This document shows positions 18,884-37,427 of a stretch of DNA of 64,000 nucleotides, piece after piece (position 1 is the first letter of the stretch; each line of letters opens with the position of its first letter). The DNA comes from a bacterium (GTDB taxonomy: Bacteria; Armatimonadota; UBA5829), in contig JAJFUS010000011.1 of the NCBI GenBank assembly GCA_021372295.1, positions 19,442-83,441 of the forward strand, read 5' to 3'. Below the pieces are notes generated by a model. That model worked only from the letters and a program-made list of their open reading frames with translations, did not search any database and was not told the origin of the DNA. The translations under genes and the position numbers were made by a program.

Positions 18884-20686
18884 TTGAACGCCGATCCGAA
18901 CACCCTGCAAGCGCGGCTTGATGAGCTTGAAAGGCAGCTGAAGGAGAAAGACGTAGCCGTCGGCGCGCTCGAACAGGCAAATAAGCGTCTTGAAGACCGT
19001 CTCAAGGAAAACGAGCAGAGCGCGTCCGGCCCGACTCCCCTCACCGAACTCGAAGAAACCCTCAAACGTCTCGTCACAAGGATCAGCATGATCCTGCAGG
19101 CCGAGAAGTGCGTGTTTATGCTCTTCGACCAGGACTCCGGCGAACTGCAGGCCGCAAAGCCAGCCGTCGGCCTCACCGACGAGCAAATTAAGATTTTTAA
19201 AGTTCCCGCCACCGAAGGCGTGGCCGGAGAAGTGTTCAGGGATCAGAAACCCATTATCCTCTACGATGCAGTCAACGACCCGCGCACCGTCAAGGAAAAC
19301 GTCGGCGTACTTGGGATCACTAATGGCGTGTGCGTGCCGCTTGTGATCGAGAAGCGCGACGAGGACACCAACAAAGTCACCGAGCGCAAGGTCATCGGTG
19401 TCATGCATGTCTTCAACAAGCGTTACGGCAACGTATTTATTCAGGAAGACGTAAACCTTCTCGACAGGCTCTCCCGCAATGCCGCTTCGGTTATCGCCAG
19501 CGCGCAGATGTATCGCGAGGTAGTCAAAGAGAAAGAAGAACTCGAGCACGTAATCGAGAGCGTCTACGCTGGAATCATCATGGTTCATAACAGCGGCAGG
19601 CTCATGCAGGTGAACCCGTCCGCCCGGGATATGCTGGGAGTCGATCAGGACGCCAAGCTGATAGGCGACTATCGCGACGCCATCGAAAATGATGTCGTGC
19701 GCGAAGTCATATCGAAGGCTTTCCAGGAAACTTCCGAAGTCCAGGAAGAAATATCTCTGCCGGACTTCAAAAGCGATGAAGAGGGCGCCGAGCGCTTCTT
19801 CCAGGTTCAAACGGCGGCCGTCAAGAGTGAGGATCAGGCAAACATCGGCATAGTCGCCATTTTTAACGATATCACCGACATACGCGCGATCGAACGAATG
19901 AAGACCGCGTTTGTTTCCACCGTCTCGCACGAACTCAGGACGCCGCTCACTTCGATCAAAGGCTTTATATCGACTCTTCTTCAGGATACCGAAGGATTTT
20001 ACGACGCAGATACCATTCACGAGTTCTATACGATCATCGACCAGGAATGCGACCGACTCACCCGCCTCATCAGCGACCTCCTGAACGTTTCCAGGATCGA
20101 AGCCGGGCGCGCGCTTGATCTCAATCCTGTGCCGGTCAACCCCAAAGAAGCAGCCGAGAGAGTGGTTGCCGTGCAGAGATCGTACACCACCAAGCATCAG
20201 ATCGAGTTGGACGTCGATGAAGATATGCCGATGATAGTTGCCGATGAGGACAAGTTCGTCCAGATTCTTACAAACCTCACCAACAACGCCATCAAGTATT
20301 CGCCAAACGGCGGAACCGTTACTGTGAGGGGCAGAAAGCTCGATGGCATGATCCGAATGTCCGTCGACGACCAGGGCATGGGCATACCGAAGGAGCACCT
20401 TTCCAAGGTGTTCGACAGATTTCACCGCATCGACAACCGCGACACGCGGAAAGTCGGCGGAACGGGGATTGGCCTTTATCTGGTGAAGCATTTCGTGGAA
20501 GCTCACGGCGGACGAATTTGGGTCGAGAGCGAAGTTGGAGTAGGTTCGCAGTTCATATTTGAAGTGCCGCTTTGCCCGCCTCAGTTTGTGGAAGAAATGA
20601 AAGCCGAGGGAATTACCGGCCAGCAAAGCAACCAGCCCGGTATGCGCCCGACTGATTTGGAAGAGCAGGCACCCGCTGTAAGTTAA
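18884..20686 (+). CDS. cytoplasmic sensor histidine kinase (coiled coil, GAF, PAS, HisKA, HATPase)
   Basis: H-box FVSTVSHELRTPLTSIKGF and the N/G1/G2 boxes (NLTNNAIKY, DQGMGI, GGTGIGL). No TM segment. TTG start 9 nt after GAGGAGG. Confidence 0.9.
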   Translation: MNADPNTLQARLDELERQLKEKDVAVGALEQANKRLEDRLKENEQSASGPTPLTELEETLKRLVTRISMILQAEKCVFMLFDQDSGELQAAKPAVGLTDEQIKIFKVPATEGVAGEVFRDQKPIILYDAVNDPRTVKENVGVLGITNGVCVPLVIEKRDEDTNKVTERKVIGVMHVFNKRYGNVFIQEDVNLLDRLSRNAASVIASAQMYREVVKEKEELEHVIESVYAGIIMVHNSGRLMQVNPSARDMLGVDQDAKLIGDYRDAIENDVVREVISKAFQETSEVQEEISLPDFKSDEEGAERFFQVQTAAVKSEDQANIGIVAIFNDITDIRAIERMKTAFVSTVSHELRTPLTSIKGFISTLLQDTEGFYDADTIHEFYTIIDQECDRLTRLISDLLNVSRIEAGRALDLNPVPVNPKEAAERVVAVQRSYTTKHQIELDVDEDMPMIVADEDKFVQILTNLTNNAIKYSPNGGTVTVRGRKLDGMIRMSVDDQGMGIPKEHLSKVFDRFHRIDNRDTRKVGGTGIGLYLVKHFVEAHGGRIWVESEVGVGSQFIFEVPLCPPQFVEEMKAEGITGQQSNQPGMRPTDLEEQAPAVS

Positions 20687-20936: not shown

Positions 20937-22157
20937 TTGGACAATACAGCCGATTTGAAAAAGAGCCTTTCGATGGGACTGCAAGATGCGCTGGACGCTC
21001 AACTGGTTCCGGGCGAAAGCATCATTATATCGCTGCCGGGAAGTTTCGGCGAGGCGTTTGCGGTCTCGGACAAGCGCGTTTTCGTGATAAGGGACTGCGA
21101 CTCTGCGTCTAATGCCGCGTGTAGAGTGTTCGGGTACGCGCTCCCCGGCGTGAAAAGCGCGCAGGTTGCGTCGTCGGGGACTGGCGGTTATATTGAGCTC
21201 AAGCTCTCGACTCCGCCGGCTGACCCCGAAGAGGCCCGCGTCTATTTCCCTTCGTATGATATAGGCCCGTTTGAGTCTGCAGCGAGTTATGTCACAAAAA
21301 TCTCTTCTCCGCAGGCGGTTCCATCTGCGCCAACTGCTCCGTCAGCCGTATCCTCCGGGGACCGCTGCCCCAAATGTGGCGCGCCAATCGAAGAGTATTC
21401 GGTATTTTGTGGAAACTGTGGCGAACATCTCAGGCAGATATGCGGTGTGTGCTCGTCGTCATCGCCCGTGGGCGCGAAGCACTGCATTCACTGCGGTCGT
21501 GAGATTGCTGCGTTCAACCCGAATTGTCCGAAGTGCGGAGCTCGCGTTCTGAAATGGATGAGATACTGCACAGACTGCGGATCGGTGCTGGAGCAGGTAT
21601 GCGTGGCATGCGGAATGGCGATTCAGCTCGACTGGAAGCATTGCGCCAACTGCGGCCGTCTTCTGGGTTCGGACAGGCTCGACCCACGCGCCGCGATGGC
21701 CGCTCAGCGCAGGCTTCAAGAGATGCGCGATACTGATGTCGAGCGAACGCGTCCCGTCGAACCCGCCGTTCAGCCCGAACCTCAGGCGACGAGCATGGTC
21801 GCGGAAGACTACAACAAGCGCGGCCTCAAGTTCTTTGAAGACGGCGAACTGGAGAAAGCCGTGCGCGAGTTCAAAATGGCCGTCGATCTTGAGCCGGGCA
21901 ACAAATCTTACCACTGCAACCTTGCCGTCGCTTATGATGAAAACGACGAAGACGAAATGGCGTTTGCCGAGTACTTCAAGACTCTCGAGATCGACCCCAA
22001 TGACCTGACAGCGCTGCTCTCGCTCGGTTATATGTACAACGAGCGCGATGAGCAGAATAAGGCCCAGGAGGTCTGGAACAAAGTCCTCTCAATTGCTCCT
22101 GACAGCGCCGAGGCGCAGGAAGTCCGCGAGAACCTCAGGCACCAGGATCAACTGTAA
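20937..22157 (+). CDS. multi-zinc-ribbon / TPR repeat protein
   Basis: Five or more CxxC...CxxC ribbons (CPKCGAPI..CGNCG; CGVC..CIHCG; CPKCGA..CTDCG; CVACG..CANCG), then TPR repeats. The start could be TTG 20937 or ATG 20973. Confidence 0.75.
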   Translation: MDNTADLKKSLSMGLQDALDAQLVPGESIIISLPGSFGEAFAVSDKRVFVIRDCDSASNAACRVFGYALPGVKSAQVASSGTGGYIELKLSTPPADPEEARVYFPSYDIGPFESAASYVTKISSPQAVPSAPTAPSAVSSGDRCPKCGAPIEEYSVFCGNCGEHLRQICGVCSSSSPVGAKHCIHCGREIAAFNPNCPKCGARVLKWMRYCTDCGSVLEQVCVACGMAIQLDWKHCANCGRLLGSDRLDPRAAMAAQRRLQEMRDTDVERTRPVEPAVQPEPQATSMVAEDYNKRGLKFFEDGELEKAVREFKMAVDLEPGNKSYHCNLAVAYDENDEDEMAFAEYFKTLEIDPNDLTALLSLGYMYNERDEQNKAQEVWNKVLSIAPDSAEAQEVRENLRHQDQL

Positions 22158-22176
22158 ATATCCCGTCATCGCGACA

Positions 22177-22210
22177 AGAGCTGTAGCGGACGCTGCAGCT
22201 CTTCTTTTTT
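22177..22210 (+). terminator. intrinsic terminator after the zinc-ribbon/TPR gene
   Basis: AGAGCTGTAGCG-GA-CGCTGCAGCTCT stem with one G.U pair, followed by TCTTTTTT. Confidence 0.75.
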
Positions 22211-22394
22211 CAACCTTCGCAAACCGGTATTCCTCTCAGCACGACCTCTCTTCCTTACAAGGCATAACTGATATGTAAGCAACTACCGACAATAGCAAAC
22301 CCGCCGAAAGGCGGGGACGCAAAGCCATCGGGACTAACCCGGGTAGCGTGAGCGGGGTCGGATGAGTCCGATCAGTTGCCCGCACCGGTATGTC

Positions 22395-22605
22395 AGCCGA
22401 GCCGCCGAAGTAGGAGTTGCTGGCGATCAGACACTGCCGGCGAGTACAAGTCGTCCGGTATGTCCCGGGTTCGTCGCAAGGGCGCAGAGTATGTGTAGTA
22501 CTGCGGAGGGGCGATGTGCGCGGGTCGCGGGCCTGGAATTCGCGGGCCCGGGAGCGCGGCGGTTTCTGATCACCGGCAATTCAGTTCGGCGGCTCGGCTT
22601 TTTTG
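22395..22605 (+). ncRNA. candidate structured RNA or leader (unclassified)
   Basis: AGCCGAGCCGCCGAA (22395-22409) is the exact reverse complement of TTCGGCGGCTCGGCT (22585-22599) and is followed by a T6 run. A nested 15-bp helix pairs 22417-22431 with 22565-22579. The interior is GC-rich with several local hairpins. No credible ORF. Confidence 0.4.
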
Positions 22606-22630
22606 TGCCGCCCGTCCTGGAGGCAATAAA

Positions 22631-22825
22631 ATGATGATCCCTGAAGCGAAGCAATATCTTGGAAGAAACGTAAGCGTCACTTTCCGCGACCGTCATGGTG
22701 ACTTGCATACGAAGACTCTGCATGTGCACGACGTTTCGTTCGTCCCGATGTACGGCGGGTGCATTGTGGGTGACATAGACGATATTTGGCTGGACAGGGT
22801 TACCAGCATCAGCGCCGTCGACTGA
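22631..22825 (+). CDS. small hypothetical protein (64 aa)
   Basis: ATG at 22631 lies 7 nt after GGAGG. MMIPEAKQYLGRNVSVTFRDRHGDLHTKTLHVHDVSF... The longer track ORF from 22514 runs through the structured non-coding region. Confidence 0.5.
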   Translation: MMIPEAKQYLGRNVSVTFRDRHGDLHTKTLHVHDVSFVPMYGGCIVGDIDDIWLDRVTSISAVD

Positions 22826-22953
22826 TGGCCATCCTTGATTGTATATATTTGTTGCGTCCGAAGGGAAGAGAGATTTTGAATTTGCCGGGGAGGTGAATGC
22901 GAAGTTCGTCTGAACCGAAAAAACTTAATAACGGAAAACTTAATAGCGACCTC

Positions 22954-22998
22954 CGGCCCGGCCTATCTACGGGAGAACTGCCAATACAGGCCGGGCCG
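22954..22998 (-). terminator. long-stem hairpin downstream of the 67-aa gene
   Basis: CGGCCCGGCCT pairs with AGGCCGGGCCG (11 bp, 23-nt loop). Lies 22 nt after the stop at 23020, with T-rich sequence following on the minus strand. Confidence 0.4.
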
Positions 22999-23019
22999 AA
23001 CCTTGTACCAAGTCCAGCC

Positions 23020-23223
23020 CTAAGCCGCTTTGCTTTTGTGACTGCGTGTAAAAAGCCGGAGCTGGCTACAGTCTATGCTCTCGCACAACTCCTGCGGCTG
23101 CCAGCCTTTGACTATTAGAGCACACTTCGCCCCATTAGTGTACGGACAGTAAAAATCGGCGCTTTCCTCACAGCCAAACAGAAGATCGTCATCGGTCAAA
23201 TCATCCATCCATTCCGGGTCCAT
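23020..23223 (-). CDS. small acidic Cys-containing hypothetical protein (67 aa)
   Basis: ATG 6 nt after GAGGAGG. A long-stem hairpin follows the stop. No family recognised. Confidence 0.5.
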   Translation of the reverse strand: MDPEWMDDLTDDDLLFGCEESADFYCPYTNGAKCALIVKGWQPQELCESIDCSQLRLFTRSHKSKAA

Positions 23224-24449: not shown

Positions 24450-24579
24450 CCTAGGGACTAAACCCTTTGTGCCTGCAAACACTCTTGAAACCAGGTTCTC
24501 TTGACTTTCCGACCCGAACTTAATTATCTCCTTAAGAGGATGATTAACTTTGATGGGAGTCTGAGGGCGAAACCCTCAA
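24450..24579 (-). repeat. seven-hairpin mosaic repeat, copy 4 (degenerate, lacks M2-M3)
   Basis: M1 (TCTGAGGGCGAAACCCTCAAG) at the high-coordinate end, a decayed M4 (24515-24552), and decayed M5-M7. The left boundary is approximate. Confidence 0.7.
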
Positions 24580-25841
24580 GACGATTTCATGTAAAGGGCC
24601 ACCATCGTCATGTCATCAATATGACGAGGCTCTCCGATACGCTGGGTCAGTCGCAATCCCCAGGTCGATATATCACTGCCGTGCACTTCCCTGAGGAATG
24701 CCTCCAGCGATTCCAGGCCGCCGCTCGACTCCAGCGCGTCAGTGATGCCGTCCGAATAGAGAATCAGTACGTCACCCGGCTCCAAATGTATCGTCTGCTC
24801 GGAATAATCGGCAGACTCCATTATTCCCAGAGGAATATCGGAGCGACTATGACAAAGTGTTCGGCCGTCGGCCTTGAGGACGATGGGAGGCATGTGACCG
24901 GCGTTGATGTAGCGAAACTCGCCTGTCTTGATGGTAAGAATTCCATAGGCAAGAGTAACGAAGCTCTCGCTGGTCGTCACGGAGATAAGATGGTGATTGA
25001 TATCGGTTGCCATTTTTGCGAGGTTTTCTGAAAAGTGCTCGTAGAGGCCGTATTTCGCGCTTGAAACCAGCAGGGCCGCTGGAACCCCTTTGCCCGCTAC
25101 ATCGGCCACGGCTATGCCAATGCGGTCTTCGTTGACGGGATAGAAATCGTAGAGGTCTCCGCCGACCTCTTGCGCCGGATTGTACAGTATGGCAATTTCC
25201 ACGCCTTCAATCTTAGGAATTTCCTGCGGAAGCTGGGCCTGTTGCACACGGCGAGCGACTTCCATCTCTCTGTCGGTGGCTGCCCGCTCCGCTCTAAGAA
25301 TTGAGGCGGCCTCGTCAAGGGCCTGAAGGCGGTCTCGGAGCGCGCCTGCGATCAGAGCTATCAGAAACAAATAGGGAAAAGTCTGCACTACATCGTCTAC
25401 CAGGAGCGTATCTGAAAGCGCCCAGCGCTTGAGAGAAGCTTGGACCACAAGCGATATGCTCCCTATTGCCAGAGCGCCAAATACCGCTCCCTTGGTGCCG
25501 TAAATTACTGCCGTGGAAATTAAAGCGATGTAGTACAGAGGGTAAAACGGGCTGGACAGCCCGCCGCTATAATAGACGATTACGCTGACAAAGAGTATGT
25601 CGACTATGGCGTTGACAGCTCTCACAGGCGAGTCTATTCTGCCTCCGGATATCAGGGACAAAACAAGGGTAAGCAAAGCCATGGCCATTACCGTCAGCAG
25701 AATTTGGTGACTGTGAACAACCTCGGTAGTGAACCGCAGTTGGGATATGATGAGCACACCCACGATTGCCAGCCATCTGATTATGTAAAGACCGATCCTT
25801 GTTCGCCTGGGTGGCGCTTCCGGCCTTGCACCCTGTTCCAC
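24576..25841 (-). CDS. membrane-bound PP2C-type serine phosphatase (SpoIIE/RsbU-like)
   Basis: N-terminal polytopic membrane region. PPM domain motifs EVGGDLYDFY and GIAVADVAGKGVPAALL ... DGITD. GTG 25841 follows GGGAGG. The TGA stop lies inside repeat module M1. Confidence 0.85.
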   Translation of the reverse strand: MEQGARPEAPPRRTRIGLYIIRWLAIVGVLIISQLRFTTEVVHSHQILLTVMAMALLTLVLSLISGGRIDSPVRAVNAIVDILFVSVIVYYSGGLSSPFYPLYYIALISTAVIYGTKGAVFGALAIGSISLVVQASLKRWALSDTLLVDDVVQTFPYLFLIALIAGALRDRLQALDEAASILRAERAATDREMEVARRVQQAQLPQEIPKIEGVEIAILYNPAQEVGGDLYDFYPVNEDRIGIAVADVAGKGVPAALLVSSAKYGLYEHFSENLAKMATDINHHLISVTTSESFVTLAYGILTIKTGEFRYINAGHMPPIVLKADGRTLCHSRSDIPLGIMESADYSEQTIHLEPGDVLILYSDGITDALESSGGLESLEAFLREVHGSDISTWGLRLTQRIGEPRHIDDMTMVALYMKSS

Positions 25842-25971
25842 ATGAAACCTCCCTAGAAAAACAGCTGAGAGCAGAAAGAATTTACCCCGGCAAGTTCGGG
25901 CCGACACATTGTCGGAAGTCGCTCATCCGGGAAGTGGGTAATTATTGGCCTGTGAAATTCGGCTCATGGTG

Positions 25972-36246: not shown

Positions 36247-36549
36247 CTACCTGATGCGATCAGCTTCCAACCGCCTTAGCATCATATCTGCAACATCTTT
36301 TCCGTTAACCTTATAACTGCCTTCGTCGATGCGGCGCTTCAGATCGTTGACGATGTCTTCCCTGGTATCAGGGACATCCGCCAAAGCCTCTTCCGCAACC
36401 ACCATTCCCTGCTCCAATGGCGAAAGATGGCGCTCACTGCGTTTTTTAGATGACACAAGCCCTTTCGGCCTGTCTGCTGGCAGAATGTGAGCATCAGACT
36501 CGCTGCCCCTTACCATTGCCCTGTCCGATTCCACCCGAGAGATTTTCAT
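36247..36549 (-). CDS. flgM: anti-sigma-28 factor FlgM-like protein
   Basis: The C-terminus REDIVNDLKRRIDEGSYKVNGKDVADMMLRRL matches the FlgM pattern. ATG 36549 lies 7 nt after GGGGG. An intrinsic terminator lies downstream. Confidence 0.65.
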   Translation of the reverse strand: MKISRVESDRAMVRGSESDAHILPADRPKGLVSSKKRSERHLSPLEQGMVVAEEALADVPDTREDIVNDLKRRIDEGSYKVNGKDVADMMLRRLEADRIR

Positions 36550-36785
36550 CACCATACCCCCTGTAAATGACTTCACGGGTAACTCAGACACAAAAAAGCA
36601 AACCCGCGAAGCTGGAAACGGCAGCCCGGCCAACCTGTTCCGAAAACGGAATGTAGTCCCGAAGGCTTTGCGTCCCCCTCTTTCGAAGAGTTTGCCTTTA
36701 TCATCTATATTGAACTCTATTTTGATTATCGGACACAAACAAAGGGTTCTTTAGACTCTCTCAAGAAAAATCTTAAGATATTTTT

Positions 36786-37427
36786 CTACCCCGCCTCAAT
36801 ACCCGAGATGCATCGAGGCTTTTCCAGTGATTCCAGCTTCGCTACGACGTCCATGTCGTATTTATCTCCCTCATCAATCTTCAGAATTTCCACAGCCTGC
36901 TCCGGATGGAACGCCTTTCTGAATGCACGATCCTCCGTTAATGCAATATAAGCGTCAGCCACTGAGACAATCCTGACCAATTGTGACAACTGCGAACCTC
37001 GAAGCCCAAGCGGATAACCCGTGCCGTCCAGACGTTCGTGGTGACACATAACGCAGTCCTCAACTTCTGGATTGGACGCAAACGCCCGCCCGGCTATCTC
37101 AGCTCCAAGCGCCGGATGTCTTCGCAACGTATCCCATTCTTTTGGCGAAAGCGACTCGCGTTTGTCAAGAATGTCTGAAGGGATACAGAGTTTTCCTATA
37201 TCATGAATCTCGGCGGCAATTGCAAGGGTAGTGAGTTTTTCGCCATCGAGGCCGAAAGCCTGGCCCAGCGATGTGGCACATATCCTGACACGAACACCGT
37301 GGCATGCTGTCGGCATGTGAGCGGCAGCAATAGCGGACTTCAACTGATGATATGACAATTCCCGACTTCTCTGCTGCACTTCGGCGTGCGGAACGACTTG
37401 GCCGTCCTTGGCACATAATACTTCCAT
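36786..37427 (-). CDS. HD-GYP domain phosphohydrolase
   Basis: HDIGKLCIPSDILDK ... HHERLDGTGYPLGL. Confidence 0.85.
   Translation of the reverse strand: MEVLCAKDGQVVPHAEVQQRSRELSYHQLKSAIAAAHMPTACHGVRVRICATSLGQAFGLDGEKLTTLAIAAEIHDIGKLCIPSDILDKRESLSPKEWDTLRRHPALGAEIAGRAFASNPEVEDCVMCHHERLDGTGYPLGLRGSQLSQLVRIVSVADAYIALTEDRAFRKAFHPEQAVEILKIDEGDKYDMDVVAKLESLEKPRCISGIEAG

Follow-up and report, generated by a model that had tools for sequence, protein, structure and literature searches.

The closest described relatives of the element reported here are riboswitches of the GEMM-I class, also called c-di-GMP-I, for cyclic di-GMP (Rfam family RF01051). In the pilM switch of Geobacter, which is turned on by cyclic GMP-AMP (cGAMP), the terminator strand sequesters the C residue that pairs with the ligand, as was shown experimentally (PMC9262584). 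The pilM RNA has about 25 nucleotides (nt) of transcription, or 1.2 s, in which to bind its ligand, and hence it is leaky and sensitive to the speed of transcription (PMC9262584). A longer expression platform gives more binding time, and modeling of pilM and of the Cd1 switch of Clostridioides difficile makes the delay between aptamer and decision important (PMC9262584). Here, we analyzed a stretch of 64,000 nt, the window, from a bacterium of the Armatimonadota (lineage UBA5829; assembly GCA_021372295.1, contig JAJFUS010000011.1) and examined the structured sequence that precedes a small gene at 22631-22825. We conclude that this sequence is very probably the 5' leader of a monocistronic mRNA that encodes a 64-amino-acid (64-aa) protein and that it combines a GEMM-I aptamer with a terminator into which a large hairpin domain has been inserted. 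The element is a fresh example of an established RNA class and not a new kind of RNA.

The aptamer and the long-range terminator

The helices of the stretch are real, and their pairing lies far beyond chance. The minimum free energy (MFE) of 22284-22645 was -189.9 kcal/mol, compared to -150.2 ± 6.0 kcal/mol for dinucleotide shuffles (z = -6.6), and none of 100 shuffles equaled it. The structured stretch is 64% G+C, compared to 53% for the window. A preliminary description, made from the letters alone, had listed the principal helices, and each of the following was found again. Two 15-nt arms (22395-22409 and 22585-22599) are complementary at 15 of 15 positions across the 175 nt between them and are followed by T22600-22604, which together with T22599 makes six consecutive T residues. 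Two further helices that had been counted separately form one interrupted helix of 26 nt (22414-22439/22557-22582; 81% complementary). The hairpins CCCGCC-GAAA-GGCGGG (22300-22315) and 22358-22371 are both in the sequence, as are copies of the 10-mer CCGGTATGTC at 22385 and 22455.

That the region belongs to no Rfam family, as the preliminary description also had it, did not hold. The whole window was scanned against Rfam at the curated gathering thresholds and, in a relaxed scan, at an E value of ≤10. Two matches in the window were above threshold, and both were to RF01051, one at 22284-22409 on the plus strand and one at 36617-36706 on the minus strand. The first scored 66.2 bits, nearly twice the gathering score of 35 (E = 1.4e-12), and covered model positions 1 to 87 of 87. 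With the outer helix P1, which lies outside the Rfam model, the aptamer extends over 22283-22413 (plus strand, as are all other features of the leader).

The two-hairpin architecture of the class is present together with its conserved parts. Aptamer P1 (22283-22288/22406-22413) covaries among relatives, as CUAC/GUAG, CCAC/GUGG, AUAC/GUAU, and AAAC/GUUU. Hairpin P1a (22300-22315), the first of the two hairpins above, carries a GAAA tetraloop of the GNRA type at 22306-22309, and the conserved junction GACGCAAAGC follows at 22316-22325. P1b/P2 (22324-22342/22385-22403) contains a receptor-like CUAAC...UAUG, and the first copy of CCGGTATGTC is the 3' half of this receptor region. An apical extension of P1b/P2, 40 nt in length (about 22344-22384), holds the hairpin at 22358-22371. 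Of the contact positions, the equivalent of C92 in Vc2, the RF01051 prototype from Vibrio cholerae, is kept as the ligand-pairing C22405, the partner of one guanine in the ligand, while the equivalent of G20, specificity position 20 in Vc2 numbering, is A22294, within AAUAGCAAA. At the level of sequence, the covariance-model match and the covariation show that the 5' part of the leader is a GEMM-I cyclic-dinucleotide aptamer. The preliminary description was right that the region is structured and noncoding, but it began the region about 12 nt too late (the true start is 22283/22284) and thereby cut into the aptamer.

We fetched the loci of relatives that encode homologs of the 64-aa protein, 42 genomic and 80 metagenomic. 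A GEMM-I core was found by motif search upstream of the gene in about 55 of the 122 loci, and RF01051 was matched in 17 of the 17 relatives tested with Rfam (58 to 75 bits). Wherever the leader bears GEMM-I, a complement to the 3' strand of the aptamer lies far downstream and is usually followed by a run of U residues. The two terminator strands are 55 to 245 nt apart, and in none of about 45 leaders are they closer than 55 nt. In a gapless alignment of the long-range stem from 48 distinct leaders, anchored by sequence and not by complementarity, 89.7% of the cells of the 15-pair stem were paired, compared to 21 to 49% when the partner was slid. Six pairs had compensatory changes (68 cells), for example G-C and A-U at 24:24, and 0 of 500 shuffles reached the observed value. 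Judged from these alignments and from that of the helix at 22414-22439/22557-22582 described below, the aptamer with its P1, the long-range stem, and the base of the inserted domain are conserved with compensatory changes across about 50 Armatimonadota leaders.

The long-range stem is a putative terminator. The 5' strand of this stem (22395-22409) also belongs to the aptamer, where it supplies the 3' strand of P2, C22405, and the first pairs of P1, and the 3' strand of the stem with the U-tract occupies 22585-22605 (strand, 22585-22599; U-tract, T22599-22604). The stem has 15 perfect base pairs, 11 of them G-C, and is followed by five or six U residues. Because both structures use 22395-22409, the aptamer and the terminator cannot form together, and the leader would therefore be a ligand-dependent ON switch. 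The preliminary description had offered a cis-acting structured leader as one reading, with the long-range stem and U-tract as a terminator within a switch, and that reading was borne out.

What competes with the terminator is the aptamer itself, through the shared strand. The preliminary description had instead pointed to GCCGCC at 22607-22612, which can pair with GGCGGC at 22588-22593 in the 3' strand of the stem, as one half of a terminator/antiterminator layout. A switch there is, and the alternative pairing recurs in relatives: 78% of its cells are paired in 22 leaders, and its central pair is U-A in 14, C-G in 3, and U-G in 1. The many G·U pairs indicate that the pairing is strand specific, and in distant leaders, complementary segments are found in other registers. 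GCCGCC cannot be the antiterminator, however, because it is transcribed only after the U-tract. We also considered a translational relay, in which 22607-22612 would occlude the ribosome-binding site (RBS; GGAGG, 22619-22623) when the terminator forms, but partition-function modeling of 50 leaders did not support it. The mean probability that the RBS is unpaired was 0.38 in the ON state and 0.42 in the OFF state, with ON higher in 20 of 50 leaders (p = 0.11), and for this leader the values were 0.21 and 0.20.

How the aptamer and the terminator might compete was followed in folding snapshots. For an RNA ending at 22414, the unconstrained MFE structure is an aptamer-type fold with the same P1, P1a, and lower P2, and only the apical extension of P2 differs. 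For an RNA ending at 22584, it is the aptamer-type fold plus a separate domain, the rod (22414-22582), that abuts P1 and would bring the terminator strands together. Once 22585-22599 is included, the terminator fold has the lower energy, by 32 kcal/mol relative to the aptamer fold. The energy of ligand binding cannot offset 32 kcal/mol, and thus control must be kinetic.

We propose the following sequence of events. Transcription would begin near 22275, just past a promoter-like motif specific to the family, and the first 130 nt or so would fold into the GEMM-I aptamer. The polymerase would then make the rod, 169 nt that would fold on themselves beside the closing helix of the aptamer and place 22585-22599 next to its 3' strand. 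Without ligand, 22585-22599 would invade by strand displacement, unzip P1, and capture C22405 and the 3' strand of P2; the 15-bp stem, now complete and stacked on the rod, and the U-tract after it would end transcription (OFF). With ligand bound, the aptamer would withstand invasion until the polymerase had cleared the U-tract (ON). The rod is thus most plausibly a spacer: where compact ON switches leave roughly 25 nt of transcription in which the ligand can bind, this leader would leave about 170 nt. It may also be a preformed upper part of the terminator.

Several observations weigh against this account. A branched insert of 175 nt is atypical of a terminator hairpin, which is otherwise compact with a short loop, and a simple consensus scan for terminators did not report the long-range one. 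The lower P2 stem of the aptamer contains two noncanonical A·C pairs. Several homologs have interrupted U-tracts, such as UUCUUG, and in these, termination may be weak or may have been swapped for another mechanism. The functional steps of the switch are, moreover, all read from sequence. Finally, the base of the rod shows conservation of its sequence in addition to its pairing, and it turns up again in paralogous leaders without the aptamer core, which a role purely as spacer would not explain.

A different fate for the same RNA is that the terminated leader of about 330 nt (about 22275-22604) is a stable small RNA that acts in trans, 6S-like or other. Such an RNA would be very stable, closed, and ended by a terminator, and terminated riboswitch leaders can act in trans in other bacteria. 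The preliminary description had likewise entertained a stand-alone small RNA, 6S being one candidate, but no 6S or other RNA-gene family was matched in the window even at an E value of ≤10; beyond RF01051, the relaxed scan gave only chance-level matches to eukaryotic long noncoding RNAs and microRNAs. The length of the element and the sequence of the rod apex vary widely among relatives, the element always lies directly upstream of the same gene, and a cis-acting switch accounts for all of its conserved features. We consider a trans-acting role very unlikely.

Likewise, the region might encode protein, either in an open reading frame (ORF) of 40 to 100 aa or as an N-terminal extension of the 64-aa ORF from ATG 22514. 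Such ORFs exist mechanically, contrary to the preliminary claim of no credible ORF, and a few database gene calls do extend the 64-aa protein N-terminally. The homologous proteins, however, begin at the Met encoded at 22631, the region varies by 55 to 245 nt with unrelated inserts, and the substitutions in it are compensatory for pairing, with G·U pairs included. Because the length of the region shifts by tens to hundreds of nucleotides among homologs, the overlapping ORFs are best taken as noncoding, as the preliminary description had concluded. Length variation and compensatory substitution together rule out a coding function, to which we give next to no credence.

The rod and the leaders without an aptamer

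The cis-acting switch thus leaves the rod to be explained. The rod is inserted in the terminator hairpin and is predicted to fold independently in both states. Its base helix (22414-22439/22557-22582) is the conserved part: in 22 closer relatives, 88% of it was paired and 10 pairs covaried. Its branched apex (22440-22556) is lineage specific and is absent or different in close relatives, some of which have a three-way junction of similar design and others a plain hairpin of 55 to 60 nt. More distant GEMM-I leaders of the 64-aa family carry rods of unrelated sequence. No Rfam family matched 22410-22600 at an E value of ≤10, and with the apex unconserved, we rejected both a second aptamer, as in a tandem riboswitch, and a known RNA within the rod.

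We note that the second copy of CCGGTATGTC lies in the apex and that, with its flank (22455-22483), it is 80% complementary over 20 nt to the 5' strand of aptamer P2 (22324-22343). The copy could thus be seen as a mimic of the 3' strand of P2 and the pairing as a decoy, but the 10-mer is not conserved in relatives, and the resemblance is probably incidental.

Paralogous genes have leaders of a second kind. We examined those that lack the aptamer core (loci L013, L016, L018-L020, L025, L026, L062-L067, L072, L085, and L093; about 250 to 300 nt upstream of the match). These leaders have neither a P1a hairpin nor ACGCAAAGC, and no Rfam family matched them even at an E value of ≤10. They retain a 5' hairpin (GCGCCCGG...CCGGGCUGCCGA) together with the long-range closing helix, and their rod base is the same, with the sequence GUUGCCnnUGAUCAG...CUGAUCAnnGGCAAU common to both kinds of leader. 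The closing helix and rod were recovered in them with 9 covarying pairs, and the apex is a near-invariant CCUCACGGUGACACCGAUAGG that resembles a tetraloop receptor. They have a CUCCUC run resembling an anti-Shine-Dalgarno sequence, and alternative pairings are kept, but there is no U-tract.

Why these leaders keep the closing helix and rod may bear on what the rod does. The rod and closing helix could be an autonomous conserved RNA module with a regulatory role of its own, such as a site for a protein (possibly the WYL-like 64-aa protein, which would then regulate itself), a target of RNase III, or a sensor of some other ligand, so that the leader described here would integrate two inputs. The retention of GUUGCCnnUGAUCAG...CUGAUCAnnGGCAAU without a GEMM-I core, the covarying pairs and near-invariant CCUCACGGUGACACCGAUAGG of the paralogs, and the minimum of 55 nt between terminator strands all speak for such a module, as does the predicted resemblance of the 64-aa protein to nucleic-acid-binding WYL domains. 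In distant GEMM-I leaders of the gene family, the rods are nonetheless unrelated in sequence, the apex in the window is unconserved even in close relatives, and no known RNA family matches the rod. We therefore doubt that the module senses a second input. If it does, the paralogous leaders would be an undescribed riboswitch-like class, and they may be one that derives from GEMM-I.

The gene, its putative promoter region, and its neighbors

The gene downstream of the switch, which the preliminary description had identified as the regulated one, runs on the plus strand from ATG 22631 to a stop codon at 22823-22825. Homologs of its 64-aa product fall into 67 protein clusters at 61 to 95% identity and are found only in Armatimonadota, with two or three paralogs per genome, and the protein matches no Pfam family. 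The structure predicted by AlphaFold2 (pLDDT 90.9) is a small stand-alone β-barrel of the Sm/SH3 kind. The best Foldseek matches in the PDB were the WYL domains of BrxR, PafBC, CapW, and DriD, with TM-scores to the query of 0.7 to 0.8 and weak E values of about 0.04 to 0.1. The protein is thus predicted to have a WYL-like β-barrel fold.

The 5' limit of the transcription unit is set by the intrinsic terminator of the upstream gene (22176-22210, plus strand), which the preliminary description had placed correctly: a 12-bp stem at 22176-22203 is followed by CTTTTTT. It ends a zinc-ribbon/TPR gene (20937-22157), the ORF of which has Pfam DZR and TPR domains. Between this terminator and the aptamer lies a promoter- or operator-like DNA motif (22222-22275, plus strand) of the form AACnGGTAWT-N5-CAGC-N20-GGCATAA-N~6-TG, here AACCGGTATT at 22222-22231, CAGC at 22237-22240, GGCATAA at 22261-22267, and a conserved TG at 22274-22275. 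We found the motif ahead of 49 distinct homologs of the 64-aa gene, some with an aptamer and some without, and in paralogous genes without the riboswitch it is sometimes only 70 to 150 nt from the ATG. Its spacers were exactly 5 and 20 nt in 49 of 49 cases, even though the search pattern permitted 4 to 6 and 8 to 32 nt, and their sequence is unconserved. The motif does not appear to be an RNA structure, as RNAalifold gave 0 pairs in 46 sequences and the spacers keep their length but not their sequence. Instead, it is probably a dedicated promoter, operator, or activator site in the DNA, and we infer a transcription start at about G22275. We found no convincing match to the consensus sequences of sigma-70, sigma-54, sigma-28, or ECF (extracytoplasmic function) sigma factors.

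Convergent to the 64-aa gene lies an ORF of 67 aa (23020-23223, minus strand) that is acidic and Cys rich and matches no Pfam family. About 20 related loci keep it next to the gene (42 to 62% identity by tblastn), which suggests that the 64-aa and 67-aa proteins may be a functional pair. A 73-aa ORF (22897-23118, plus strand) is not conserved beside the gene. Signaling genes flank the locus, namely, a GAF-PAS histidine kinase (18884-20686, plus strand) and a membrane PP2C/SpoIIE phosphatase with a PilS-like transmembrane domain (24576-25907, minus strand).

The window contains a second GEMM-I riboswitch, at 36575-36720 on the minus strand, the aptamer of which (36617-36706) scored 72.7 bits against RF01051. 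It has G at position 20 and lies upstream of a homolog of flgM (36250-36552, minus strand; PF04316, E = 3e-13). The 3' strand of its terminator (GCGGGUUUGC followed by six U residues) has its pairing partner in the 5' part of the aptamer, a layout that fits repression of flagellar genes by c-di-GMP via the anti-sigma-28 factor. The two leaders in the window thus share their Rfam family and terminator strands that are far apart and followed by a U-run; the flgM leader differs from that of the 64-aa gene in keeping G20, in having no rod, in the part of the aptamer with which its terminator pairs, and in the gene that it precedes. Immediately upstream of the second riboswitch is an HD_5 (HD-GYP-type) protein (36786-37427, minus strand), a likely cyclic-dinucleotide phosphodiesterase and the only candidate cyclic-dinucleotide enzyme seen in the window.

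Ligand specificity and comparison with known switches

Because the specificity position in the leader of the 64-aa gene is A and not G, the ligand would be c-di-GMP and/or 3',3'-cGAMP. The G20A change defines cGAMP riboswitches, and with it Vc2 binds c-di-GMP at 53 nM and cGAMP at 120 nM (PMC6140456). Variants with A20 stay classed within GEMM-I, with altered or relaxed specificity (PMC6140456). Position 20 is A in 12 and G in 44 of 56 homologous leaders and alternates between leaders that are otherwise very similar.

One possibility, which we take seriously but do not favor, is that the leader is GEMM-Ib-like and reads 3',3'-cGAMP selectively or alongside c-di-GMP, with its mechanism otherwise unchanged. 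A20, which is found here and in 11 relatives, takes the place of the G that recognizes one guanine of c-di-GMP, and the same change suffices to confer cGAMP binding on Vc2 (PMC6140456). Moreover, the second GEMM-I riboswitch in the window keeps G20, so each of the two switches could respond to a signal of its own. That orthologous leaders flip between A and G, however, suggests that the change is tolerated and is not a switch of signal, and RNAs with A20 retain nanomolar affinity for c-di-GMP (PMC6140456). No cGAMP synthase gene was seen in the window, and no ORF in it has a GGDEF motif. Finally, known GEMM-Ib switches are concentrated in Geobacter (PMC8835794).

Whichever ligand is read, the locus extends c-di-GMP-I-type riboswitches, some of them A20 variants with cGAMP as a possible ligand, to the Armatimonadota, a phylum known almost solely from metagenomes and in which second-messenger biology is unexplored. 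A literature search for c-di-GMP riboswitches in Armatimonadota or Armatimonadetes found no report in the papers that it covered. The leader would tie a cyclic-dinucleotide signal to a conserved, uncharacterized family of 64-aa WYL-like proteins. While the general picture of how such riboswitches work is unchanged, the platform would be a natural ON switch in which termination is decided very long after the aptamer has been completed, and thus a convenient test case for kinetic control.

Compared to Vc2, the aptamer has the same GAAA loop on P1a, GACGCAAAGC junction, CUAAC/UAUG receptor, C92 equivalent, and position in a 5' leader. It differs in A rather than G at position 20, in the 40-nt apical extension of P1b, and in the two A·C pairs of the lower P2, as well as in its host phylum, the Armatimonadota, and in its gene, which encodes an uncharacterized 64-aa protein. 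The GEMM-Ib switches of Geobacter (Gm0970/pilM and Gs1761) share with it the A at the specificity position and what would be the same logic, an ON switch in which aptamer and terminator are exclusive and the ligand-pairing C is captured (PMC9262584; PMC6140456). Their genes differ, as the context here is neither pili nor cytochromes and no cGAMP synthase accompanies the switch within the window. The decision, moreover, falls about 25 nt past the aptamer in pilM but would fall about 175 nt past it here, after the rod. Cd1 of C. difficile is of the same aptamer class, is likewise controlled at an intrinsic terminator, and also has a longer platform that gives the ligand more time to bind (PMC9262584). 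Cd1, however, is an OFF switch with a separate antiterminator, whereas here the aptamer itself would be the antiterminator, and the switch would be ON.

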